Assembly: GCA_039803745.1 (NCBI GenBank) | Contig: JBDRZD010000038.1 | Location: forward strand, 1-17,843 | Reading direction: 5' to 3' | DNA from: a candidate division WOR-3 bacterium | GTDB taxonomy: Bacteria; Hydrothermota; Hydrothermia; Hydrothermales; Hydrothermaceae | DNA length: 17,843 nucleotides | Shown: positions 2,961 through 17,739 of the stretch, one piece after another | How the letters are laid out: each line of letters begins with the position of its first letter | How positions within the stretch are numbered: position 1 is the first letter of the stretch | The notes under the pieces: generated by a model | Database searches by the model: none | What the model was told of the DNA's origin: nothing | What the model saw: the letters and a program-made list of their open reading frames with translations, nothing else | Program-made: the position numbers and the translations under genes

Positions 2961-4190
2961 GTGAATGTGAAAAATAATTTAAAATTTAAAATAATAACAC
3001 AGGGTTGCAGAACAAATATATACGAATCAGAGATTTTAAGAAGTATTTTCTTAGAAAATGGATTAGTTGAATGTTTTGATGAGAATGAAGCAGACATTTT
3101 GATTCTTCATTCCTGCTGTGTTACCCATAAGGCTGAAAGGGATGCAAGGAAAATAATTTCAAGATTTTTTAAGAATGAAAGAGCATTAAAAATTTTAACG
3201 GGATGTTATTCAAAAATAATTAAAGAAAACGGTTTTAATGGAAAATTAAAATTGATTCATAATTATGAGGATATTCCTCCTTTTATTGGAATTCAAAATA
3301 GTAAAATAGAAAGACTTCATTTAAAGCATAAAAGATTCTTTTTAAAGATTCAAGAGGGTTGCGATTTTAAATGTTCCTATTGTATAATTCCCTATGTAAG
3401 GGGAAGATCAAGGTCAAGAAATCCTGATGATATATTTTGTGAATTTGAAAAATCTTTAAATCTCGGTGTAAAAGAATTTGTAATTTCAGGAACTCAGATT
3501 GGTGAATATGGTAAGGAATTTAAAAAGGATATTGTATGGCTTATTGAAAACTTAACTAAATGGAATTTTAATTATAGAATAAGACTTTCCTCAATTGAAA
3601 TAGTTTATGTAAATGAAGGGTTAATTTCTCTTTTAAAAAATCCAAAAATTTGCAAACATTTACATATTCCGCTTCAATCTGGCTCTGATAAGATCCTTAG
3701 AGAAATGAAAAGACCCTATAATACTTCTTTATTTAGAAGGAAAATAAACATGATAAGGGAAGAAATAAAAGATCTGTGTCTTGGAACAGATATAATAGCA
3801 GGTTTCCCCGGTGAGGAGGATGATGATTTTTTAAAGACATTAGAATTTATTGAGGAAATAAATTTCTCATATCTTCATGTTTTTAGTTTTTCAAAAAGAC
3901 CATTTACAGATTTAGAAGATAAAAAAGAAATTAAAAGTGATATAAAAAAAGAAAGGGTAAAAAGGCTCATTCTTCTTGGTGATAGATTAAGGGATAATTT
4001 CTTAAAAAATTTAATAGGGAAAAAGCTAAGGGTGTTACCAGAGAAAATTGAAAATGGATTTATAAAAGGGCTTTCTGATGAATATGCAAGAGTTTATTAT
4101 AAGGGTGATTTAATGAATGAATTTGTTTATTTAAAGGCAAAGGAAATTTTTAAGAATGGAATAAAAGGAGAAATTTTATGTCCCTCTTAG
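2961..4190 (+). CDS. mtaB: Radical SAM methylthiotransferase, MtaB-like (tRNA t6A37 C2-methylthiotransferase)
   Basis: N-terminal cysteines TQGCRTNIYES, HSCCVT and TGCYS; KIQEGCDFKCSYCIIPYVRG (CxxxCxxC); RIRLSSIE, HLHIPLQSGSD, TDIIAGFPGE, LHVFSFSKR. The start may instead be GTG 2967. Confidence 0.88.
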   Translation: MNVKNNLKFKIITQGCRTNIYESEILRSIFLENGLVECFDENEADILILHSCCVTHKAERDARKIISRFFKNERALKILTGCYSKIIKENGFNGKLKLIHNYEDIPPFIGIQNSKIERLHLKHKRFFLKIQEGCDFKCSYCIIPYVRGRSRSRNPDDIFCEFEKSLNLGVKEFVISGTQIGEYGKEFKKDIVWLIENLTKWNFNYRIRLSSIEIVYVNEGLISLLKNPKICKHLHIPLQSGSDKILREMKRPYNTSLFRRKINMIREEIKDLCLGTDIIAGFPGEEDDDFLKTLEFIEEINFSYLHVFSFSKRPFTDLEDKKEIKSDIKKERVKRLILLGDRLRDNFLKNLIGKKLRVLPEKIENGFIKGLSDEYARVYYKGDLMNEFVYLKAKEIFKNGIKGEILCPS

Positions 4191-4444
4191 AAAAAATAAA
4201 AAGGGAGAATGAAAAGAAAAAAAGTGTTCTTGCAAAATGGCTTTTACCACAAGAAGTAAAGAAAAAAGAGGACATTCTTATATTTGAAGAGGGGAGAGGC
4301 TCTTTTGAAATGGAATTTGAAAAAAGGGAAACAGAGGAGGATGAAAAGGAAAAATATAAGAAGCTTATCTTATCATTTCTCAATCTAAAAGCATATGATG
4401 AAGCGATAAAAATAATAGAGGAAATGAAAGAAAAGGGGATTTGA
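4178..4444 (+). CDS. Small highly charged hypothetical protein (88 aa)
   Basis: Good SD (AAAGGAG, 7 nt before the ATG); overlaps the mtaB end and the xerD start (TTGA); host-like codon usage; no family recognised. Confidence 0.75.
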   Translation: MSLLEKIKRENEKKKSVLAKWLLPQEVKKKEDILIFEEGRGSFEMEFEKRETEEDEKEKYKKLILSFLNLKAYDEAIKIIEEMKEKGI

Positions 4445-6479: not shown

Positions 6480-7566
6480 CCTTTATATAAAAGAAAAAGA
6501 GGTAAAAAAAATTGTGAAGGTTTTAAAAAGGGGATGGCTTACTTTTGGAGAAGAATGTATAAAATTTGAAGAGGAATTTAAAAGAATTTTAGGTTCAAAA
6601 TATTCATTATTTGTTTCTTCAGCAACAGCAGGTCTTCACCTTGTTTATAAAGTTTTATTTAATAAAGATGATGAAGTTCTTGTTCCTTCCTTTACTTTTA
6701 TTTCAACAGTTACTCCACTTTTACATATAGGGGCACACCCTGTTTTTGTTGATATTGAATCAATAGATTTTCCTTTATTATCTATAAAGGATGCAGAGAA
6801 GAAAATTACTAAAAAAACAAGAGGTCTTGTCTATATGCATTATGCAGGCTATTTGAGAAATATGAAAGAAGTTGTTGAATTTTGTAAAGAAAACAATTTA
6901 ATTCTTATTGAAGATTCTGCTCATTCCCTTTTTGTTAAAAATGAAAAATATGCAGGAACATTTGGAAAAGCAGGGGTTTTCTCGTTTTTTTCAAATAAAA
7001 ATTTACCAATCGGAGAAGGTGGGATGGTGGTTACAGATTATAAAAAAATCTATGAAAAATTGAAACTTTTAAGATCCCATGGAATGACAAAAGATACAAT
7101 TGAGAGGTTTAAAAAAGGGTTTTTGTATGATGTTGTGGAAATTGGTTTTAATTATAGACCAACAGAGATACAAGGAGCACTTGCAAGAGAAATTTTAAAA
7201 AGAGTTTTTAAGGATAATAGAAAAAGGGAAAGGATAGTGAAAAAATACAGGAAGGAATTATCAAAATTTCTGAGAATACCCTTTGATGAAAAAACCCCTT
7301 CTTCCCACTATATATTTCCTGTTTTTTGTAAAGATAAAAAAGAAAGGGATGAATTAAAAGAGTTTTTATTTAAAAATAAAATTCAAACTTCCATTCATTA
7401 TATACCGGTTCACAAATTTAAGGTATTTAGAGAAATTAAACCAAAAATTGATTTGCCTGTTACAGAAGAAGCAGGTGACAGGGAATTAACCTTACCTTTG
7501 TATCCGTCAATGAAAAAAGAAGATGTTGATTATGTTATTGAAAAAGTAAAGAAATTTTTTACTTAA
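6454..7566 (+). CDS. DegT/DnrJ/EryC1/StrS-family PLP-dependent NDP-sugar aminotransferase
   Basis: SSATAGLHL, EVLVPSFTFIST, IEDSAH (PLP Asp), FSFFSNKNL (PLP Lys), GEGGM, GFNYR, LTLPLYP; SD AAGGAG at 6441-6446. Confidence 0.93.
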   Translation: MRYRVPLFDLYIKEKEVKKIVKVLKRGWLTFGEECIKFEEEFKRILGSKYSLFVSSATAGLHLVYKVLFNKDDEVLVPSFTFISTVTPLLHIGAHPVFVDIESIDFPLLSIKDAEKKITKKTRGLVYMHYAGYLRNMKEVVEFCKENNLILIEDSAHSLFVKNEKYAGTFGKAGVFSFFSNKNLPIGEGGMVVTDYKKIYEKLKLLRSHGMTKDTIERFKKGFLYDVVEIGFNYRPTEIQGALAREILKRVFKDNRKRERIVKKYRKELSKFLRIPFDEKTPSSHYIFPVFCKDKKERDELKEFLFKNKIQTSIHYIPVHKFKVFREIKPKIDLPVTEEAGDRELTLPLYPSMKKEDVDYVIEKVKKFFT

Positions 7567-7568
7567 AT

Positions 7569-8369
7569 TTAATAGATATGCCTTTCATCAGGATATTTCC
7601 CTTCAATTACCTCTTTTTTATACTCTGATAATGCCTTTTCTATTATTTCTCTTAAATTTAGATAATTTTTTACAAATTTTGGATAAGGAGAAGGTGTAAG
7701 GCCAAGAATATCATAAACAACAAGTATCTGTCCATCACAGTATCTTCCTGCGCCTATTCCAATTGTTGGAATTTTAACATTTTCTGTAATTTCCTTTGCT
7801 AAATCTTCATATATTCCCTCAAGAACAATTGCAAAAACTCCGATTTCTTCAAGACATTTTGCATCCTCTAAAAGTTTTTTTCTTTCCTCTTCCTTTTTAC
7901 CCTTTACTTTAAATCCTCCAAAAGATAAATAAAATTGGGGTGTTAGTCCTATATGACCTAAAACAGGTATTCCAGATTTTATTATAAATTCAATTGTTTC
8001 TTTAAATTCTTTCCCTCCTTCAATTTTAACTGCATCCATATACCCTTCTCTTATAAATCTTGAAGCATTTTCTAAAGCCTTTTCCTTTGAAATCTGATAA
8101 CTCATAAATGGCATATCACCAACAAGGAGTGCTCTTTTTGCCTTTTTTGAAACTGCTTTTGCAAAGATTATCATTTCATCCATTGAAACCCTTAAAGTAT
8201 CTTCATTACCAAGAAGTGTGTTTGAAACAGAATCTCCAACAAGTATTATATCAAAACCTATTTTATCTTCTATTTCTGCAATTAATGCATCATAGGCAGT
8301 AATTGCCACAATTTTTTCTTTACCCTTTTTCTTTATTATATCATTTACAGTTATTTTATTTTCTTTCAA
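7569..8369 (-). CDS. panB: 3-methyl-2-oxobutanoate hydroxymethyltransferase
   Basis: ITAYD, ILVGDS, GDMPFMSY, VKIEGG, GHIGLTPQ, PTIGIGAG..CDGQILV..DILG, PKFVK. TTG start overlaps the ruvB stop (TTGA). Confidence 0.97.
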   Translation of the reverse strand: MKENKITVNDIIKKKGKEKIVAITAYDALIAEIEDKIGFDIILVGDSVSNTLLGNEDTLRVSMDEMIIFAKAVSKKAKRALLVGDMPFMSYQISKEKALENASRFIREGYMDAVKIEGGKEFKETIEFIIKSGIPVLGHIGLTPQFYLSFGGFKVKGKKEEERKKLLEDAKCLEEIGVFAIVLEGIYEDLAKEITENVKIPTIGIGAGRYCDGQILVVYDILGLTPSPYPKFVKNYLNLREIIEKALSEYKKEVIEGKYPDERHIY

Positions 8370-9361
8370 AATAACTTCTTCTCTTTAAAAAATAATTCAA
8401 TTGATTTTTTTGTTAAAACTCTTCCTCTTGCTGTTTTTTCAATAAATCCTTCCCTTATTAAATATGGTTCATATACTTCTTCTATTGTTCCTTCATCCTC
8501 ATCAAGAGCAGAGGCAAGCGTCTTAAGTCCTACTGGTCTATTGTGAAACTTGTAATATATTGTTTCAACTATTTTTTTGTCCATTTCATCAAGTCCATAT
8601 TCATCAACTTCCATTTTTGAAAGAGCATACTTTGCAATTTCCTCGTCAATTATCCCTCTGCCTTTAACAATTGCAAAATCCCTTACCCTTTTTAAAAGTC
8701 TGTTTGCTATTCTTGGTGTTCCTCTTGATCTCTTTGCTATTTCATTTATCCCTTCCTTACTTGTTTCTATTTTTAAAATTTTTGCAGACCTTTCAATTAT
8801 TTTATTTATTTCTGATACACTGTAATAATCTATCCTTATTTGAATTCCAAATCTTGATCTTAAAGGGCCTGTTAAAAGTCCTGTTCTTGTAGTTGCTCCT
8901 ATCAATGTGAATGGTGATAGTTTAAATTTTATTGATTTTGCTCCTGGTCCTTTATCCACCATTAAATCAATTTCATAATTTTCCATTGCAGAATAAAGAT
9001 ATTCTTCTACATTTTTTGGGAGTCTATGTATTTCATCTATGAATAAAATACTCATTGGTTTTAATTTTGTCAGTATTCCTGCTAAATCAAAGGGTTTTTC
9101 AATAACGGGTCCTGATGTTGCAATTATTTCTGTTTCCATTTCATTTGAGATACAATGGGCAAGTGTAGTTTTACCAAGACCCGGTGGACCTGAAAGGAGA
9201 ATATGGTCAAGGAGCCCTTTTCTTTTCTTTGCCGATTTTATGAATACTTCAATATTTTCTTTAATTCTATCCTGCCCGATGAATTCTTTTAATCTTTTTG
9301 GTCTTAATTCTATCTCTAATATTTTATCTTCTTCAAGCGGATATGGAGAAGTTATTTTCAT
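8366..9361 (-). CDS. ruvB: Holliday junction branch-migration AAA+ ATPase
   Basis: LRPKRLKEFIGQ, Walker A GPPGLGKTTLA, Walker B FIDEIHRL, EEYLYSAME, GATTR.GLLTGPLRSRFG, SRGTPRIANRLLKRVRD, EPYL..GFI.KTARGR. Confidence 0.98.
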   Translation of the reverse strand: MKITSPYPLEEDKILEIELRPKRLKEFIGQDRIKENIEVFIKSAKKRKGLLDHILLSGPPGLGKTTLAHCISNEMETEIIATSGPVIEKPFDLAGILTKLKPMSILFIDEIHRLPKNVEEYLYSAMENYEIDLMVDKGPGAKSIKFKLSPFTLIGATTRTGLLTGPLRSRFGIQIRIDYYSVSEINKIIERSAKILKIETSKEGINEIAKRSRGTPRIANRLLKRVRDFAIVKGRGIIDEEIAKYALSKMEVDEYGLDEMDKKIVETIYYKFHNRPVGLKTLASALDEDEGTIEEVYEPYLIREGFIEKTARGRVLTKKSIELFFKEKKLF

Positions 9362-9951
9362 TGAAGAAGTTTCAACAATTTGTTCCCCATTTCTTTTGCT
9401 TTCGCCTGTCCTATTATTATTGCCGAAGCACTCTGTAAATTTATAATAAATTTTTTTGTTTTCTTTAAACTTGCATCATTTACATCTATTCTTGCATCCT
9501 TTAATTGGTTTTCAAAAATTGGATATGCAAAAGCCCCTAAATATTCCTCCAAAATTTTTTTAATCTCTTCAAATATTCTGGGTTCCACTTTTATTTCCTC
9601 TTCAGGTGGTGGAGCAGGTTTTTCTTTTGGTGGTGCAGGTGTTACCTTTGGTGGAGTAACAGTTTCTTTTTTTAGACTTAGAATTTTTTCATTGGCAATT
9701 TTTATAACTTCTTCAATTTCTATTTCCTCATTACTCAAAATACCATAAAATATTCCCTCTTTTTCAAATATGCTGAAAAAGTTTTTATCATATTTTAAAT
9801 TTATTCCTTCAATTGGAAGACCCGAAAAACCTAATGCTTCTTTTAATATTGTAAATATTTTCTTATAAGGAACTATTCTTGGGTCATTTTCAGGGAAAAA
9901 GATAATCTCATCTTTTCTTTGAATTAAAATAAGTTCAATTTTTTCTTTCAT
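9358..9951 (-). CDS. Hypothetical protein: divergent Roadblock-like N-terminal domain, Pro-rich linker, C-terminal helical domain
   Basis: ATGA overlaps with both neighbours. The N-terminal ~90 aa resembles the adjacent Roadblock-like protein (FSIFEKEGIFYGILSNEEIEIEEVI vs IYIFEEKGMYVGIKGEEIDIDKII). Fold assigned by eye. Confidence 0.7.
   Translation of the reverse strand: MKEKIELILIQRKDEIIFFPENDPRIVPYKKIFTILKEALGFSGLPIEGINLKYDKNFFSIFEKEGIFYGILSNEEIEIEEVIKIANEKILSLKKETVTPPKVTPAPPKEKPAPPPEEEIKVEPRIFEEIKKILEEYLGAFAYPIFENQLKDARIDVNDASLKKTKKFIINLQSASAIIIGQAKAKEMGNKLLKLLQ
9608..9660. repeat. Imperfect intragenic repeat encoding a Pro-rich linker
   Basis: GGTGGAGCAGGT (9608-9619) and GGTGGTGCAGGT (9629-9640), 21-nt period; encodes VTPPKVTPAPPKEKPAPP. 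Confidence 0.7.
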
Positions 9952-10631
9952 ATAATCTTTAACCTTTCACTAACCCTTTTAACTTTTTTCCTTGCTTCTT
10001 CAACACCATATTTTGAAACCCCCATTTTCCATATTATATCAATCGCTGATCTGAAACATCTATTAATTTCCTCCTCATTTATTTCAGCATATAAAGGATA
10101 TTTTACTTTTATATCCTTTCCTTCATGTTCTAAATGCTGGGCAAATAATGGTGAAGTATCTTTTATCTTTGCAATTACTACTTTACCCCATCTGATTTCG
10201 TCTCCCTCTGAAAACTCTTTTATTAATTCATTTATTTGTCTCATTTTTGCTTCAACAAATTTCTCAAGAGGCGTAAGAGCTTCTGAGACAGCTTCTTCCC
10301 TTTTCACAGGAGCCTCGACAGCTTCTTCTCTGTAATTTCTAACAAATTCAATTATTTTATCAATATCAATTTCCTCTCCTTTTATTCCCACATACATTCC
10401 CTTTTCTTCAAATATGTATATATTTGAACCATCTCTTAAATATCCCTTTATATAAGAAAAATTTTCAATTCCAATATTTTTTAAAGATGCTTCCCCTGCA
10501 GAGCCAAGAACTCCGATACCCTCTGCAAAGAACTCCCCTTCATTTCCCTTAAAAATTATCTTTCCCTCTTTATTTATAACTGCTACACCTTTAATTCCTT
10601 CCATTTTTAAAATTTCTTCAAATACCTTCAT
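9948..10631 (-). CDS. Roadblock/LC7 (MglB-like) domain protein with C-terminal helical domain (227 aa)
   Basis: From ATG 10631, MKVFEEILKMEGIKGVAVINKEGKII matches the Roadblock helix-'GI.G..VI..EG.II' opening, followed by a helix (..SLKNIGI), three strands and a helix. The ORF-track TTG at 10715 lies deep in the upstream gene; AGGAG lies 14 nt before 10631. Confidence 0.72.
   Translation of the reverse strand: MKVFEEILKMEGIKGVAVINKEGKIIFKGNEGEFFAEGIGVLGSAGEASLKNIGIENFSYIKGYLRDGSNIYIFEEKGMYVGIKGEEIDIDKIIEFVRNYREEAVEAPVKREEAVSEALTPLEKFVEAKMRQINELIKEFSEGDEIRWGKVVIAKIKDTSPLFAQHLEHEGKDIKVKYPLYAEINEEEINRCFRSAIDIIWKMGVSKYGVEEARKKVKRVSERLKII
10287..10328. repeat. Intragenic 12-nt direct repeat with 30-nt period in an interdomain linker
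   Basis: GACAGCTTCTTC at 10287-10298 and 10317-10328; encodes REEAV twice (REEAVEAPVKREEAVSEA). Confidence 0.75.
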
Positions 10632-11496
10632 GTAGGGTTTCGATTCTCCTTTTAAAATTTTCAAATTTTTTCTTACCAAGTATTGTTCCAAAATCAAGTA
10701 TAAACTTTTTTTCAAATAAAGGCAATATTACTTCTTTTATATTTTTAAATGATTCTTTACCTATTATTGATTCTTTTTTTAAAAAAATTTCTCCATTTTT
10801 TTCATCAAAATCTATATTTTCTTCTAATTCTTTAAATCCCGAACTTTTTAAAGCTGTCTTTATAAAACTTGTACAGGATTTTTTAAGTTCAACCGAATCC
10901 TTTGAGTATTCATTAATAAATTCATTGAAAATTTGAATTATTTTTTTGGTTCTTCTTTTTTCTTCTTCAGGATCGAAAATTAACCCCTTTTCAATCAAAA
11001 ATGATACTGATTTATAAGCTTCAAAAAGTCCTATTTGTGATTCAAAAATCACATCTCTTAATTTTTTCTTGCCATCTATAAGACTTAAAATTTTCCAATC
11101 ACTTTTTCTGAGTTTAAGTTTTTCAAAAGAAGCATTTTCAGATTTTAAAAGAACTGCGTCAAGCGGGGGGAGCTTATTTTCAATCTCCCTTATTTCCTTT
11201 GACCTCCTGTCAAATTCTTCAAAAAGTTTTACCGGTTCTCCACCCATTGTTTTTTTAGGAGGTAAAACATTTGGCTCAAATGTTAAATATCCTTCTTTTA
11301 AAAGGGAGAGCTCAAAAAGAGCATCAATCCCTTCTAAATCATTAAAGATCGCATGTGTAAATTTACCTTCCTCTACATATATTTCACCTTCATATCTTGA
11401 CTTTATTTTTATTTTACCCGTTTTTTTATTTATGCTTAAAAAATGAAGCACTTCTACAACACTTATATAAGAAATTTCAGCTCTCAATGCCTCCAT
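10618..11496 (-). CDS. DUF4388 (PatA-N/PATAN-like) domain protein with winged-helix-like middle and C-terminal helical domain
   Basis: LRAEISYISVVEVLHFLSINKKTGKIKI..GEIYVEEGKFTHA..EGIDALFEL..EGYLTF is the DUF4388 pattern. DWKILSLIDGKKKLRDV..FEAYKSVSFLIEKGLI is the wHTH-like segment commonly found after it. Confidence 0.85.
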   Translation of the reverse strand: MEALRAEISYISVVEVLHFLSINKKTGKIKIKSRYEGEIYVEEGKFTHAIFNDLEGIDALFELSLLKEGYLTFEPNVLPPKKTMGGEPVKLFEEFDRRSKEIREIENKLPPLDAVLLKSENASFEKLKLRKSDWKILSLIDGKKKLRDVIFESQIGLFEAYKSVSFLIEKGLIFDPEEEKRRTKKIIQIFNEFINEYSKDSVELKKSCTSFIKTALKSSGFKELEENIDFDEKNGEIFLKKESIIGKESFKNIKEVILPLFEKKFILDFGTILGKKKFENFKRRIETLHEGI

Positions 11497-11537
11497 ATTT
11501 TGAATACTAAAATGTAATACTTTATTATAAGTATATT
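11497..11537. promoter_or_regulatory. 41-bp divergent promoter region
   Basis: + strand: TTGAAT(11500-11505)-17-TATTAT(11523-11528), 9 nt before ATG 11538. - strand: TAGTAT (11509-11504), 7 nt before ATG 11496. Inverted repeat ATACTT-N6-AAGTAT at 11517-11534. The region is AT-rich, so chance matches are possible. Confidence 0.55.
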
Positions 11538-12470
11538 ATGAAAAAAATTTCAATCTTGTTCATATTTTTTTTAACATGCACTTCTCCCTATTTTCCAAAA
11601 GGAAAACCCGAAGAACTTGTTATTTTTTCAGAAGGTCTTTTGAAGATGAAGGATTTTATTGAAACGGAGATTCAGGATACATTTTATACACCGAGACCTG
11701 AGCCAATTTATGATATAATCTTTGCAAAGGTTTCTGAATTTGAAAAATATAAAGGGTATTATACAATATTAATTCTGGCAACACCGAGCTCGGCTTCCTA
11801 TGAGATTTTTAAAGATATTTTCCCTGAAGCACAGAAAAGGGGGGTTTATGAAAAAAGAAAGATTTTTCAAAAAGAGGATTATATAGTTGGAATTCTTGGT
11901 CCTGATGAAGATTATATTCTCTCAGAACTTAAAGAAGTTTTAAACAGGTTAACTTTACGTATTAAAGAACTTTATAAAAAACATGTTTATAATATAATTG
12001 ATGTAAATAATAGTATAAAGAGGGAGATAAAAAAAGAGTATGGTTTTGAGATTGATATACCTACTGGCTTTTTATATATAAAAAAGTCAAAGGATTTCAT
12101 TTCGCTTGGTGCTCATTACCCCGATAGATTTATATTTTTTTATATCAGTGAAAAAGTTCTTGAGCTTGATCCGGAAAAATTGATGGATTTAAGGGACTCG
12201 TTAACAGAGATTTATTATGATGGTGATAAGATTGATAGGGAACTTACGAAGTGGAAAAGGATAAAGATTTTTGATGAAGAAGGTATGGAGATTTATGGGC
12301 ACTGGGAGAATGAAAAGATGAAGATCGGAGGCGCATTTAAAAGTTTGATTTTCAAGAAGAAAGACAGATATTATTTTATTGATATGGGTGTTTTTGAACC
12401 TGAAAAACCAAAACTAAAATATATAAGATGGCTTGAAGCAATAGTATCTACAATGAAATGGAGTTATTAG
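11538..12470 (+). CDS. DUF4837-like lipoprotein
   Basis: Signal peptide MKKISILFIFFLTC with a lipobox-like Cys; PRPEPIY, YGFEIDIP, LRDSL, GHWE..IGGAFKS, VFEPEKPK..IRWLEAI resemble DUF4837 proteins (from memory of the family). Confidence 0.75.
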   Translation: MKKISILFIFFLTCTSPYFPKGKPEELVIFSEGLLKMKDFIETEIQDTFYTPRPEPIYDIIFAKVSEFEKYKGYYTILILATPSSASYEIFKDIFPEAQKRGVYEKRKIFQKEDYIVGILGPDEDYILSELKEVLNRLTLRIKELYKKHVYNIIDVNNSIKREIKKEYGFEIDIPTGFLYIKKSKDFISLGAHYPDRFIFFYISEKVLELDPEKLMDLRDSLTEIYYDGDKIDRELTKWKRIKIFDEEGMEIYGHWENEKMKIGGAFKSLIFKKKDRYYFIDMGVFEPEKPKLKYIRWLEAIVSTMKWSY

Positions 12471-13462
12471 AATTTCTTTCAGATCCAGAAAATTATCCTG
12501 AAAAATCAAAAAGTTTGAAAATTGTTCAAACCCATATATCCTTCATTTTTATCCTTGATAATTATGTTTATAAGATTAAAAAGCCTGTAAATTTTGGATT
12601 TTTAGATTTTAGAGCCCTTGAAAAAAGAAAATATTATTCTTTAAAAGAGGTTGAAATAAATAGAAGACTTGCAAAAGATATTTATATAGGTGTTATTCCC
12701 ATTTCAAAAGTTAAAGATAAATTTGAGTTTTCTGATAAAAATCCTGTTGAATATGCTGTTAAGATGAAAAGGTTACCTGAAGAATTTTTGTTGTCAAATT
12801 TAATAAAGAAAGGGATAAAAGAAAAAGATTTAATAAGGATAGCAGATAAGATAGCAAAATTTCATAATGAAGCAGAAACAAATGAATATATACTATCAAT
12901 GGGCAAAAGGGAAAGGATTAAAATAAACACTGATGAGAATTTTGAGCAAACTGAAAAATATAAAAATATTACAATAAAAGATAAGGATCACGAATTTATA
13001 AAAAAGAGAGTTAATAAATTTTACGAAAATTTTGAGAGTTTATTTGAAAAAAGGATTAAAGAGAAGAAAATAAAGGATTGTCATGGAGATTTGAGGATGG
13101 AGCATATATGTGTTTTAAAAAAGGATATAATAATATTTGATGCAATTGAATTCAATGAAAGATTCAGATACCATGATATTTTAAATGATATTGCCTTTTT
13201 GACAATGGAGATGGATTATGAAGGATTTAGAAAAGAGAAAAAAATAGTTGAGGATAGATGGTTTGAAATATGTGAAAAGGAAAAAAATGAAGAAACATTA
13301 AAGCTATATTATTTTTATTTATCCTATAGAAGTTTTGTAAGGGGGAAAGTCACAAGTTTTTTATTGGATGACCCGTATATAAGTTTTGAAGAGAAAGAGA
13401 AGATTAAAGAAAAGGCAAAAAAATTCTTTGAACTTTCAAAAATTTATATAGAGGAAGTTTGA
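12458..13462 (+). CDS. Aminoglycoside-phosphotransferase-like kinase (COG2187-type), stand-alone domain
   Basis: QTHIS, YVYKIKKPVNFGFLDF, EVEINRRLA..IY, CHGDLRMEHI, IFDAIEFNERFR..D..NDIAFL.MEMD, SYRSFVRGKV. Confidence 0.85.
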   Translation: MELLEFLSDPENYPEKSKSLKIVQTHISFIFILDNYVYKIKKPVNFGFLDFRALEKRKYYSLKEVEINRRLAKDIYIGVIPISKVKDKFEFSDKNPVEYAVKMKRLPEEFLLSNLIKKGIKEKDLIRIADKIAKFHNEAETNEYILSMGKRERIKINTDENFEQTEKYKNITIKDKDHEFIKKRVNKFYENFESLFEKRIKEKKIKDCHGDLRMEHICVLKKDIIIFDAIEFNERFRYHDILNDIAFLTMEMDYEGFRKEKKIVEDRWFEICEKEKNEETLKLYYFYLSYRSFVRGKVTSFLLDDPYISFEEKEKIKEKAKKFFELSKIYIEEV

Positions 13463-14197: not shown

Positions 14198-16921
14198 TTA
14201 AAGACTAAAATCTTTTGCTTTATAAAATTTTTTGTCAAGCAAAATCCCTTTTTCTAAAATTATCATTTTTTCAAATTCTTTCAAATTCTTTAAATAAAAA
14301 AATAAAAATATTTTCTTCAAATTTTCTGGCATCTTGCCAAATCTATCTTTTATTTCCTCATAAATTTCTTTTATTTCACTAATATTTTTTGCTTCTGAAA
14401 GCCTTTTATATATTGAAATTATGACTTCTTCATCTTCAATATAATCCCTTGGAATATAAATATCTGATTCAACCTGAATTTTCCCTTTTTTCTCTTCAAT
14501 TCTTTCGCCTTTTACCCTTTTTATCTCCTCATCAAGTATTTTAAAAAATAAATTGTATCCAAGTCCTTTTATAAATCCGTGCTGTTTTTTATCAAAAATT
14601 TTTCCTGCCCCCCTTAACTTCATATCGTATAATGCAATTTTAAATCCCGAACCTAAATGCCTGTAAGTTGCAATTGCTTTTAATCTTTTTTTAGCATTTT
14701 CACCTATATTTTTTGGAATTAAAAAGTATGCATATGCCTTTTTATCCCTTCTTCCAATCCTTCCCCTTATTTGATGGAGTTCTGCAAGACCAAAAAGGTG
14801 TGGATTTTCAACTATCAATGTATTTGCCCTTGGAAAATCAACTCCTGCCTCAAGAATTGATGTTGATACTAAAATGTCTATCTTACCAAGCATAAAATCT
14901 ATAAAAATATTTTCTATTTTCTCTTTATCCATTTTTGCATGAACAATTTCAACAATTGCTTCAGGAAAAAGTCTTTCCAATTTTTCCTTTATTTCTTTTA
15001 GCCTGCTGATTCTATTATGAATATAAATAACCTGTCCATCTCTTTCAAGTTCAAAATTTATTGCCCTTTCTATTGTTTCAATGTTATAAGGAACTACAAT
15101 TGTTTCAATCTCTTTTTTTGAAGGTGGTGGTGTCTCTATTAAAGATAAATCCATTATCTTACCAAGGGAAAGAAAGAGTGTTCTTGGAATAGGTGTTGCT
15201 GATAAATAAATTGTGTCAATATCTTTTTTTAAAAATTTTATTTTTTCTTTTTGTTCAACCCCGAATCTGTGTTCTTCATCAACTATTAAAAGTCCAAGGT
15301 CTTTAAATTTAACATCTTCCTGTAAAATTCTATGTGTTCCTATAACTATATCAATTTCGCCTTCCCTAATTCTTTCAATTATCTCTTTCTGGGTTTTTTC
15401 AGGCTTTAATCTTGTAAGACTCTCTACCTTTATATTAAAATTTTTCAGTCTTTCCTTAAAATTCATCTCATGTTGTATTGCTAAAATTGTTGTTGGAACT
15501 AAAATTGCCACTTGTTTTTTATTCAATGCAAAAAGAGCACTTGCTCTTAAAGCAATTTCTGTTTTTCCAAAGCCTACATCACCACATACAAGTCTTTCAC
15601 ATATTTTTTCACTCAATATTTCATTCTTTATTTCCTTCCATGTTCTTTCCTGATCCTCGGTTTCTTTATATGGGAATGATAATATTATTTCATCCATTTC
15701 CTTTTTATATTCATAAACAAAATTTTTTATTTTTGCTTTTCTCTCAGCCATCATTTCAAGTAATTTCCTCGCAAATTCATTCGCGTATATTTTTGCTTTT
15801 AATTTTTTTGTAAACCATGCCCTTGAAGAAATTTTTGTTTCTTTTATTTTTTCTCCTGAATATCTTTCAAGTTTATCTATTTCATAAAAAGGAACATAAA
15901 TTTTTTGTTTTTCATTAAAAATTATTACAAAGGTATCTATTTTTTTATTATCAATTTCAAAAATTTTTACCTCTTTTAAATAACCTATTCCGTAATCTTC
16001 ATGGATAACAGGGTCACCGCATTCAAGAAGGGCTGTATTCTCTATTCTTTCTGAAAATAAAGGAAATTCTTCTTCATCTTTAAACCCATATATTTCTCCT
16101 TCTCCAAAAACACCTATTTTTTCATCTTCTAAAATAAATCCGTGATAAAGATTACCTTTTTTATATTCTAAAAATGGAAAAATATTCTTAAGATAACTGT
16201 ATCTTATTGTATTTGGAGCAAAATAAAATATTTTAAATCCCCTTTTATTTAGTTTTTCTAATTCCATTTTGAATACTTCAAATAAAAGTGGTGGATTTGG
16301 TATTATTTTAAATGGAAATATTTCCTCTTTTTCATAAATTATTTTGAAATCTTCTATTTTATTTCTCTCACCATAAAAATTTCTTGTTGAAAGATAATAT
16401 TCCTCTATCTTTTTAACTCTTCTCTGATTTAATGGATCAAAAATCCTTATTTCAAAAATTTTGTTTCCTGAAAACTCAATCCTCACTGGCAGGTCTTCAT
16501 ATTCAGGGAAAAAATCAACAATTCCTCCCCTTACAGCATATTCTTTTTTCCCCTCAACATAAAGAACCCTTTCAAATCCCTCTTTTTCAAGTATTTCCAG
16601 AAGTTTTTCTCTTTCAATTTCTTCACCCCTTTTAATTTTTAAAAAATTGAGTTCTTTTATTTCTTCAACAAATTCTTCATCTTTCAAAAGAATAATTTCG
16701 CTTTTTAAATTTATAGTATTTTGTTCATATACTGAAATTTTTATTTCCGGATTAATACTTTTAATCTCTTCATAAATCTTTTCTATTTCCTCTCCTACAA
16801 ATAAAATTTTTTTATACTTTTTTAAAAAAGATAAAAGGAGAAAAGTTTTTGCACCACTTGGAATATTTTTATCAATATAATCTATTTTTTGAACTAATCT
16901 ATCAAAAATCTCTTCTACCAT
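14198..16921 (-). CDS. mfd: Transcription-repair coupling factor (compact, 907 aa)
   Basis: UvrB-like D2 YAVRGGIVDFFP..PVRIEF..IRIFDP..QR; RID GDPVIHEDYGIG; FPYKETEDQ; CGDVGFGKTEIA; DEEHRFGV.QKE; SATPIPRTL; FGLAELHQIRGRIGR; TRG-like LGSGFKIA..D..LRGAG; TRCF domain YKRL..EEIKDRFG. Confidence 0.96.
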   Translation of the reverse strand: MVEEIFDRLVQKIDYIDKNIPSGAKTFLLLSFLKKYKKILFVGEEIEKIYEEIKSINPEIKISVYEQNTINLKSEIILLKDEEFVEEIKELNFLKIKRGEEIEREKLLEILEKEGFERVLYVEGKKEYAVRGGIVDFFPEYEDLPVRIEFSGNKIFEIRIFDPLNQRRVKKIEEYYLSTRNFYGERNKIEDFKIIYEKEEIFPFKIIPNPPLLFEVFKMELEKLNKRGFKIFYFAPNTIRYSYLKNIFPFLEYKKGNLYHGFILEDEKIGVFGEGEIYGFKDEEEFPLFSERIENTALLECGDPVIHEDYGIGYLKEVKIFEIDNKKIDTFVIIFNEKQKIYVPFYEIDKLERYSGEKIKETKISSRAWFTKKLKAKIYANEFARKLLEMMAERKAKIKNFVYEYKKEMDEIILSFPYKETEDQERTWKEIKNEILSEKICERLVCGDVGFGKTEIALRASALFALNKKQVAILVPTTILAIQHEMNFKERLKNFNIKVESLTRLKPEKTQKEIIERIREGEIDIVIGTHRILQEDVKFKDLGLLIVDEEHRFGVEQKEKIKFLKKDIDTIYLSATPIPRTLFLSLGKIMDLSLIETPPPSKKEIETIVVPYNIETIERAINFELERDGQVIYIHNRISRLKEIKEKLERLFPEAIVEIVHAKMDKEKIENIFIDFMLGKIDILVSTSILEAGVDFPRANTLIVENPHLFGLAELHQIRGRIGRRDKKAYAYFLIPKNIGENAKKRLKAIATYRHLGSGFKIALYDMKLRGAGKIFDKKQHGFIKGLGYNLFFKILDEEIKRVKGERIEEKKGKIQVESDIYIPRDYIEDEEVIISIYKRLSEAKNISEIKEIYEEIKDRFGKMPENLKKIFLFFYLKNLKEFEKMIILEKGILLDKKFYKAKDFSL

Positions 16922-17703
16922 TTTTCTTCTTTATACACTATTTCCTCATTTCCATCCTCATACTCCACTTTAAAATAACCTTTTATAACATTTATTTCTT
17001 TTACCTTTCCTATCCCCTTGGGAGTTTTTATTTCCTCCCCGATCCTTGGAAAATCTTTTGAAGCTTCTTCATAAAAGGGGAATTCATATCTTAAACAGCA
17101 TAGAAGTCTTCCACATATTCCTGTAATGTTTTCAGGAACAGCAAAGATATATTGGTTTCTTGCCATTTCAAGAGTTATGGATGGAATCTGTTTTAAAAAT
17201 TTTTTACAGCATATCTCCCTTCCACATTTTCCCATCCCCCCTATTTCTCTTGCATAATCCCTTGCACCTATCTGCTCAAATTCTATATGGACATGTAATA
17301 TTTTTGCAAGTTTTGGTGCAAATATTTGAAAATTGTGTCTCTTTTCAGCAGTAAAATAGAACTTAAATATCCCATTTTTCAAATCAGGGAATACTTTTAC
17401 AATCTTTACATCGTCCCTCTCTTTTTCATATATAAACCCTTTCACCATATTTTTTATAATTCTTATAACTTCATCTTCTTCTGCAATTCTCAAAGATAAA
17501 ATTTTATGCTCTGTTTTTTTATTTGACTTTATGCGAAATTTTGCAAGTACCTCTTTTTCAGGCTCCTTTGTTGTTTTTATAAAAATAAACTCGTTTTTTT
17601 CTAAACTTATTTCCCCTTCATAAATGTATCTTTCAAATCCACCCCCCACTATAGAAACCTCAAGGGTATTTTTAACTTCTTCTTTTTCTTTTTTGAAAAA
17701 CAT
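16915..17703 (-). CDS. ricT: PSP1-domain protein (RicT/YaaT family Fe-S protein), 262 aa
   Basis: FYFTAEKR, IEFEQIGARDYA..IGGMGKCGREICC..FL, MARNQ, ITGICGRLLCCLRYE. ATG 17703 is preferred because the ORF-track TTG at 17739 is the -35 box itself. Confidence 0.88.
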   Translation of the reverse strand: MFFKKEKEEVKNTLEVSIVGGGFERYIYEGEISLEKNEFIFIKTTKEPEKEVLAKFRIKSNKKTEHKILSLRIAEEDEVIRIIKNMVKGFIYEKERDDVKIVKVFPDLKNGIFKFYFTAEKRHNFQIFAPKLAKILHVHIEFEQIGARDYAREIGGMGKCGREICCKKFLKQIPSITLEMARNQYIFAVPENITGICGRLLCCLRYEFPFYEEASKDFPRIGEEIKTPKGIGKVKEINVIKGYFKVEYEDGNEEIVYKEEKW

Positions 17704-17739
17704 CTTTAAATTATAATGTAATTTAAATTTAATTGACAA
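17704..17739 (-). promoter_or_regulatory. Sigma70-type promoter for ricT-mfd, probably leaderless
   Basis: Minus strand: TTGTCA(17739-17734)-18 nt-TATAAT(17715-17710)-6 nt-ATG 17703; no SD. Confidence 0.75.

Follow-up and report, generated by a model that had tools for sequence, protein, structure and literature searches.

A 17,843-nt stretch of DNA from a candidate division WOR-3 bacterium (contig JBDRZD010000038.1 of assembly GCA_039803745.1; hereafter the window) carries three overlapping minus-strand genes, g1, g2 and g3, which a first-pass annotation made from the sequence alone had singled out as a candidate signalling or scaffold system of one PATAN (DUF4388) protein and two Roadblock-like proteins. 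Gene order and gene content across the phylum indicate that the module is one of five genes, including two membrane proteins, T4 and T3, and that the three genes first noticed are its cytoplasmic part. This module is real, conserved and apparently undescribed, a variant of the PATAN/Roadblock/MglA kind. As to its role, we consider it evenly balanced whether the trio and T4/T3 form a membrane-anchored, conservon-like accessory complex that would regulate or position MglA in trans.

Conservation of the five-gene module across WOR-3

Trio loci were examined in the window and at 40 further loci picked via g2 matches across the matching families, and the order g1-g2-g3 was kept in all 41, so that the conservation of the trio in other genomes, on which its proposal as a system had depended, is borne out by the gene neighbourhoods. 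Those close homologues of g2 and g3 that carry a name are assigned to candidate division WOR-3 or Stahlbacteria; in a limited search beyond the phylum the g2 profile found 24 representatives, and Atlas matches in other phyla scored <0.9 or were mixed clusters. A phylum census (272 genomes, deeper profiles, with four g2 and three g3 partial, weak matches dropped) found full-length g2 and g3 in the same 109 genomes. T4 was present in 107 genomes, 106 of them module genomes and the remaining one bearing a shortened trio. T4 lay directly downstream of g3 (≤600 nt) in 95 of these 107 genomes, was split from it by a contig end in one, and was found elsewhere in the genome in 11, among them the source genome (T4 at C19:6484-5793). 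Outside the gene order of the source genome, T4 and then T3 almost always come next after the trio, and exbB-exbD-exbD-tonB usually comes after them; scanning 43 loci from T4, we found the trio upstream in 41, the other two being ended by contig boundaries. T4 and T3 are small membrane proteins of ~115–130 amino acids (aa) with three transmembrane (TM) helices each, and are paralogues (probability 82).

The ExbB-ExbD-ExbD-TonB motor is thus the usual neighbour, with T4-T3-exbB consecutive in 78 of the 103 loci scanned. An exbB orthologue was, however, present in 48 of the 53 genomes of ten same-class families having neither trio nor T4, and none of 18 control exbB loci (17 orthologous, one paralogous) had T4, T3 or the trio upstream, unrelated genes occupying that place. 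At a further locus (L221:6378-9968), g1 is intact, g2 is cut to an 87-aa fragment directly before exbB, and g3, T4 and T3 are absent while the motor genes are intact. Since exbB is kept without the module both in the control genomes and at L221, and since unrelated genes precede the control exbB, gene content argues that T4/T3 track the trio, not the motor.

Several variants of the locus were also observed. In the source genome, the second half of the module lies at C19:391-6484 (L220), in the order T4-T3-exbB-exbD-exbD-tonB with a TonB-dependent receptor-like gene after it. At L138:6225-7526 (family f20) the trio is shortened, with g1 lacking PATAN, an 83-aa g2 and a 175-aa g3, and T4/T3 are on another contig. 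Two genomes (G125, G138) have g3 and T4 in two copies, and a second T4-T3-exbB operon, this one lacking the trio, is present in G133. Just 5' of the trio, 17 of the 41 loci (e.g. L060:8405-11790) have a four-gene DUF6754 membrane block, of which the source genome has two copies elsewhere. In T3 (116 aa, three helices), Glu8, His59 and Glu92 are invariant and lie within or close to the membrane helices, where they may form a site that binds an ion or cofactor.

Domain composition of the cytoplasmic proteins

g2 (9948..10631, minus strand, as are all features given below as start..end; 227 aa) consists of a Roadblock domain (aa 1-102, 10326..10631), an acidic linker and a C-domain (aa 118-227, 9951..10280); its start was placed at the ATG at 10631, which matches that of the aligned homologues, the open-reading-frame finder having given a TTG at 10715. 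An AlphaFold2 model of aa 1-102, built on 50 sequences (predicted local distance difference test, pLDDT, 91.5), superposed on Roadblock with Z 12.1, root-mean-square deviation (rmsd) 2.3 and 101 positions aligned, and gave 83 Foldseek matches at E ≤ 1e-3; Roadblocks likewise made up 17 of the 19 weak matches of g2 in a PDB sequence search. The divergent g3 (9358..9951, 197 aa) joins a Roadblock domain (aa 1-94, 9670..9951) by a Pro/Lys linker to a helical C-domain (aa 123-195, 9367..9585). Its model of aa 1-94 (41 sequences, pLDDT 85.9) is a weaker Roadblock than that of g2, with Z 8.7, rmsd 2.5 and 75 positions aligned, the top nine rows all being Roadblock-type; the best Foldseek E was 1.5e-3, with longin matches close behind, and the window copy lacks helix 1. 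These models place both N-terminal domains in the Roadblock/LC7 superfamily by predicted fold, as the first-pass annotation had anticipated, although neither window protein reached the curated cut-off of Pfam Robl_LC7 (PF03259); a match to this family was given by 1 of the 50 g2 rows (E 0.0025) and by none of the 41 g3 rows.

MglB is described as binding MglA via alanines of its helix 2 (PMC3199381). In g2, helix-2 positions 40 and 43-46 are A, G or S in 84–98% of the 50 rows, as they are in the canonical WOR-3 MglBs, the g2-MglB alignment (probability 49) making this residue equivalence approximate; the small-residue patch is absent from helix 2 of g3. Profile comparison of the trio domains (21 domain pairs) left two pairs standing out, the C-domains of g1 and g2 (hhalign probability 98, E 6.8e-14, 102 columns; hidden Markov model (HMM) match E 5.6e-6) and the Roadblocks of g2 and g3 (probability 65, E 6e-5). 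The C-domains of g2 and g3 had no detectable homology (hhalign probability 3), and a likeness of the g1/g2 C-domain to that of g3 was likewise unsupported (2–5). By these profiles g2 and g3 are paralogous in their Roadblock part only: the Roadblock-like domain and low-complexity linker first described for each are confirmed, and the C-domain is common to g1 and g2, not to g2 and g3. The g2 C-domain, modelled as part of the whole protein, is predicted to comprise two helical hairpins around a beta-hairpin, and its invariant residues are E139, F140, W148, G209 and V220.

Aligned with P0148, a Roadblock protein carrying DUF8082 (PF26309), g3 matched over both domains (probability 94, E 1.4e-7), and its C-domain alone matched four sister C-domains (hhalign probability 82, E 1e-5); a plain HMM gave only 8.9 bits, and Atlas leads scored 0.85 and 0.80. 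These alignments suggest that the g3 C-domain is related to DUF8082. A structural lead concerns Af1502, the type STAC protein, described as two helical hairpins with a nine-residue linker and an LGPx(x)A motif, coupled to HAMP-only receptors (PMC4834066); in CbrA, the STAC domain is reported to pack beneath the membrane domain of the transporter (PMC13022988). Modelled aa 123-195 of g3 cover 68 of the 68 residues of Af1502 (rmsd 2.7), with residues 153-161 as the linker and a Z of 7.1, which lies below the level meaningful for helical bundles and within the range of common helical arrangements. Two further features count against the likeness: DSSP assigns residues 124-152 to one helix, and the first hairpin reads Gly-Asp-Phe instead of Gly-Pro. 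Across 41 sequences the first-hairpin motif [LV]-G-x-F occurs in 31, with Pro absent at that point, and a second-hairpin motif [ILV]-G-P-x-x-[AG] in 28, while the four sister C-domains have I-G-P in the first hairpin. Neither a HAMP-only receptor nor an SLC5 transporter was seen with the trio; the sister loci of families f3 and f42, described below, do show such coupling. The sister domains, which carry the Gly-Pro motif, adjoin HAMP-only proteins, and this context strengthens the lead that the g3 C-domain may be STAC-like.

g1 (10618..11496, 292 aa) begins with a DUF4388 (PATAN) domain (11194..11478), which matched PF14332 at E 4.6e-11 and 43.3 bits (cut-off 25) and did so in 39 of 39 orthologues. 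Its middle domain (~aa 108-178, 10963..11175) resembles a winged helix-turn-helix (wHTH) only weakly, with TrmB matched in four and HTH_47 in two of the 39 orthologues (E ≤ 0.01, below the cut-offs), and its C-domain (~aa 180-290, 10627..10959), homologous to that of g2, has no family name. The three-part description of g1 given earlier thus stands for DUF4388 and the C-domain, and weakly for the wHTH. No receiver family was among the matches of the 39 orthologues, so that g1 lacks the C-terminal receiver of PatA-type proteins; an identity as RGS or TPR_Edg1 was discarded (E 0.006 and 0.001, below the Pfam cut-off, in 1 of 39 orthologues). A Walker A motif search and the Pfam receiver matches were negative for g1, g2 and g3 of the window, in agreement with the initial view that the trio has neither P-loop nor receiver, and no meaningful match to a PDB sequence was obtained for g1, for g3 or for the g3 C-domain. 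At C11:15140-15760 (L003) lies a gene for a 206-aa paralogue of g1 that has PATAN and wHTH but no C-domain.

The positions of the three genes and their overlaps of 14 nt (g1/g2) and 4 nt (g2/g3) were as first given, but the run goes on through 4-nt overlaps into ruvB (8366..9361) and from ruvB into panB (7569..8369), both over NCBIfam cut-offs and outside the module; panB is its final gene. A promoter-like site (11524..11553, an 11/12 consensus match only), the best of 32 sites in 7300-11800 (shuffled mean, 19 sites), lies directly upstream of g1. Since the strongest such site stands there and the overlaps continue into ruvB and panB, the most likely transcript has five genes, with the trio at its head and these two housekeeping genes after it, rather than the trio forming a transcription unit of its own. 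The remainder of the window encodes, among others, a divergent member of DUF4837 and a protein of 334 aa without Pfam match (11538-13462), the latter presumably akin to a phosphotransferase, an 88-aa reading frame with weak PPR-like matches (4178-4444) and a PSP1-domain protein (16915-17739). Elsewhere in the genome, a 119-aa Roadblock gene follows yebC-ruvC-ruvA (C28:22762-25004, L002; names by sequence recognition), whereas ruvB follows the trio.

MglA in trans and sister loci

The source assembly (93% complete, 100 contigs) has six DUF4388 genes and two canonical Roadblock genes, and no MglA was found in it by Arf, ATP_bind_1, motif and MglA-protein searches. An Arf-family census proved unusable for MglA (0 of 14 control genomes positive at threshold), and we used as query the MglA protein of a relative, so labelled from its sequence and its Ras-family matches. 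MglA orthologues were found in 167 of the 272 phylum genomes and in 103 of the 109 module genomes, those without a match being the source genome and five assemblies that are 62–76% complete. In a congener (G043), mglB-mglA is flanked by genes whose counterparts are found at the ends of contigs C32 and C89 in the source assembly, and in all four sequencing runs containing the window one contig spans mglB-mglA, with ~86% identity to the congener. This contig was assigned to the source organism by gene order and by depth, which was close to that of the tgt-bearing contig in three of the four runs (71.5 vs 70.8, 50.9 vs 48 and 53 vs 49.5); three of the four are possible sources of this DNA. Since the mglB-mglA of the congener fits the C32–C89 gap and the run contigs cover it, the source organism very probably has mglBA, and its absence here fits an assembly gap.

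At the genome level, therefore, the system is not GTPase-free: of the two options offered for its NTPase partner, encoded elsewhere or non-canonical, the first agrees with the census and the second is unneeded. It does hold that the trio is no Mgl or conservon locus of the described type, mglA standing beside none of the trio loci; by the definition of a coupled MglB (within four genes of mglA), no trio locus has one. Matches over cut-off identified PilB and PilT in the source genome, and flagellin was not found in its 93% complete assembly. We also noted a run of Roadblock, DnaA-like ATPase, DUF4388-TPR and CheR genes (C23:17092-21571; L001, L005); in several other families, mglA rather than a Roadblock gene sits before the DnaA-like gene.

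Weak matches led to three other arrangements of the same domains. Family f42 (L136, L137; L137:3477-10040) has mglA, mglB, a binding protein-TonB_C fusion, Roadblock-DUF8082, a binding protein, a HAMP-only membrane protein, PATAN-Roadblock and Roadblock, and the Roadblock of g2 matches the PATAN-fused Roadblock of a sister locus at E 1e-11. Family f3 (L212:5857-9217, L213:4406-7698) has a HAMP protein, a (periplasmic) binding protein, a PATAN-wHTH-DUF8082-like protein and an MglA-like GTPase, and f19 (L222:5623-7925) has PATAN-Roadblock, Roadblock and a 242-aa multi-TM protein without Pfam family. The cytoplasmic domains thus recur in varied fusions, with a membrane gene each time and with mglA beside two of the three arrangements. 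A split 7-TM receptor is unsupported as an identity for T3/T4, which are unrelated to the 242-aa protein of L222.

Proposed mechanism, alternatives and known systems

We take T4/T3 to be the input of the accessory complex, and MglA to be its target, chiefly because the sister loci pair the same domains with a membrane gene (3/3) and with mglA (2/3). The paralogues T4 and T3 would form a heterodimer serving as membrane input, beneath which the STAC-like C-domain of g3 would dock, as STAC does under the CbrA transporter. The Roadblocks of g2 and g3 would heterodimerise, and, only g2 having kept the MglB-like small-residue helix 2, the dimer would be an asymmetric GTPase platform and not a plain second GTPase-activating protein (GAP). 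g1 would join g2 through their homologous C-domains, and PATAN and MglA would relay the input to the motor of type IV pili; in Synechocystis, PATAN domains are reported to bind PilB1 and PilC, the isolated PATAN sufficing for output (bioRxiv 2021.06.11.447907). As first suggested, the trio may form a hetero-oligomer and have a role in polarity.

Several observations weigh against this reading. The trio is unlinked from T4/T3 in the gene order of the source genome, T3 and T4 belong to no known family, and mglA is beside no trio locus, the single instance among the 103 loci scanned being the f42 sister locus. MglA is common in the phylum (64 of the 167 genomes with it lack the module), which makes the nesting of module genomes weak evidence, and a canonical mglB already beside mglA in the congener means that g2 is not needed as a GAP. 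The co-occurrence profiles were drawn from the same loci, and shared sensitivity limits could inflate co-occurrence; as kin are not independent, we claim no statistic on it. Finally, the sole cultured WOR-3 strain has pili but is reported to have shown no motility (PMC12285271).

A fuller form of the accessory complex, which we hold possible but not probable, is a kinase-less receptor-to-G-protein relay, in which the 3+3-TM heterodimer docks the STAC-like-Roadblock heterodimer as a Ragulator-like platform for MglA, and swappable inputs (a HAMP-only receptor with its binding protein, or T4/T3) feed one PATAN/Roadblock/DUF8082 layer. If true, DUF8082 would be a STAC-type coupler that supplies the missing output of Af1503-like receptors, and the position beside ExbBD-TonB may tie the module to the energy state of the envelope. 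Rather doubtful in our view is a scaffold independent of MglA, in which the membrane pair and the Roadblock dimer only localise g1, with PilB/PilC or some other ATPase as the direct target of PATAN. The lack of mglA beside the trio and of the helix-2 patch in g3 would suit it, as would the binding and sufficiency of isolated PATAN in Synechocystis and the numerous orphan MglB homologues of uncharacterised function (PMC4316618); against it stand the MglB-like patch conserved in g2, the mglBA that adjoins the nearest relatives of the g2 Roadblock and of g3, and the presence of the module in only 6 of the 105 genomes without an MglA match.

Control of the adjacent motor by the five genes, as MglA/MglB control the Agl-Glt machine of Myxococcus, is an unlikely alternative that the frequent T4-T3-exbB adjacency brings to mind. 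T4/T3 also stay with exbB when the locus splits (in the source genome's order and in f20), Glu8, His59 and Glu92 of T3 are invariant, f42 carries a TonB_C fusion, and GltJ is reported to recruit MglB to the gliding machinery (PMC11135422). Yet the motor is kept without the module in most control genomes, at the control exbB loci and at L221; two genes stand between T3 and exbB in f18, T4/T3 are away from exbB at L140 and L180, and the TonB-dependent receptor-like gene after the motor suggests ordinary uptake. Transcriptional output, in which g1 would bind DNA by its wHTH-like domain and be sequestered by the Roadblocks together with the membrane pair, would follow the sequestration proposed for Group 3 MglA (PMC4316618) and draw on the weak HTH matches of g1 orthologues; these are few and below any cut-off, and DNA binding by PatA-type regulators is deemed unlikely in bioRxiv 2021.06.11.447907, so that we regard this outcome as improbable. 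Least credible, to the point of being barely worth entertaining, is RuvB as a non-canonical NTPase partner: its gene overlaps g3 by 4 nt and ruvA, too, has a Roadblock gene after it (contig C28), but ruvB is behind the trio in only 7 of the 41 loci, all with the source genome's order.

Earlier work has described PATAN genes in the vicinity of mglA/mglB as well as orphan MglBs and conservons, and up to the 2014 survey no orphan MglB-like protein had been characterised (PMC4316618). In the literature searched, subscription papers aside, we found no description of the five-gene cassette or of a link between STAC and Roadblock, and no paper on DUF8082. In eukaryotes, the Roadblock pairs of Ragulator link the membrane to a small GTPase; the module supplies a set of small, soluble and defined proteins for testing if, in bacteria, pairs of Roadblocks couple membrane proteins to a small GTPase with no kinase involved, and it bears on the question of what partners HAMP-only receptors and stand-alone STAC proteins have. 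If its proteins do not touch MglA, it would be one more lineage-specific PATAN/Roadblock cluster.

Among known systems, the MglA/MglB switch with PATAN neighbours (Myxococcus, Thermus; PMC4316618) shares with the module its Roadblock folds, a PATAN neighbour, and genomes that also encode a Group 1-type MglA and type IV pilus ATPases, whereas the module has no mglA linkage, two divergent Roadblocks with extra C-domains, a separate canonical mglB and a dedicated membrane pair. The Group 3 MglA system keeps a REC-like/wHTH protein, mglA and one or two mglB together; here the N-domain is PATAN and mglA is not at the locus. Divergent Roadblock pairs are likewise found in Ragulator (LAMTOR2/3, LAMTOR4/5) and MglB/MglC, which are among the top fold matches of g2 and g3, with a likeness in fold only (9–21% identity) and a g2/g3 heterodimer that is itself conjectural. 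Myxococcus Agl-Glt control by MglA/MglB also places Roadblock genes beside a TolQ/TolR/TonB-family motor, but in WOR-3 the motor does not depend on the module and has a TonB-dependent receptor-like gene after it. Cyanobacterial PatA-type regulators (PATAN-REC) have the PATAN domain and a pilus motor in common with it, whereas g1 has, instead of a receiver, a wHTH-like domain and the shared C-domain. With Af1503/Af1502 (HAMP-only receptor and STAC) and the CbrA STAC, the resemblance lies in the g3 C-domain, which superposes on all of Af1502, and in its WOR-3 relatives beside HAMP-only receptors with the Gly-Pro hairpin motif; unlike them, the trio has no HAMP receptor, its domain is fused to a Roadblock, and the structural score is weak. 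The actinobacterial conservon CvnABCD, whose CvnC carries a wHTH, is likewise a conserved cassette around a small GTPase, with a membrane component, a Roadblock and a wHTH-type protein; the WOR-3 cassette differs in lacking both a histidine-kinase-like CvnA and a GTPase, and its gene maps suggest two 3-TM paralogues as the membrane input.

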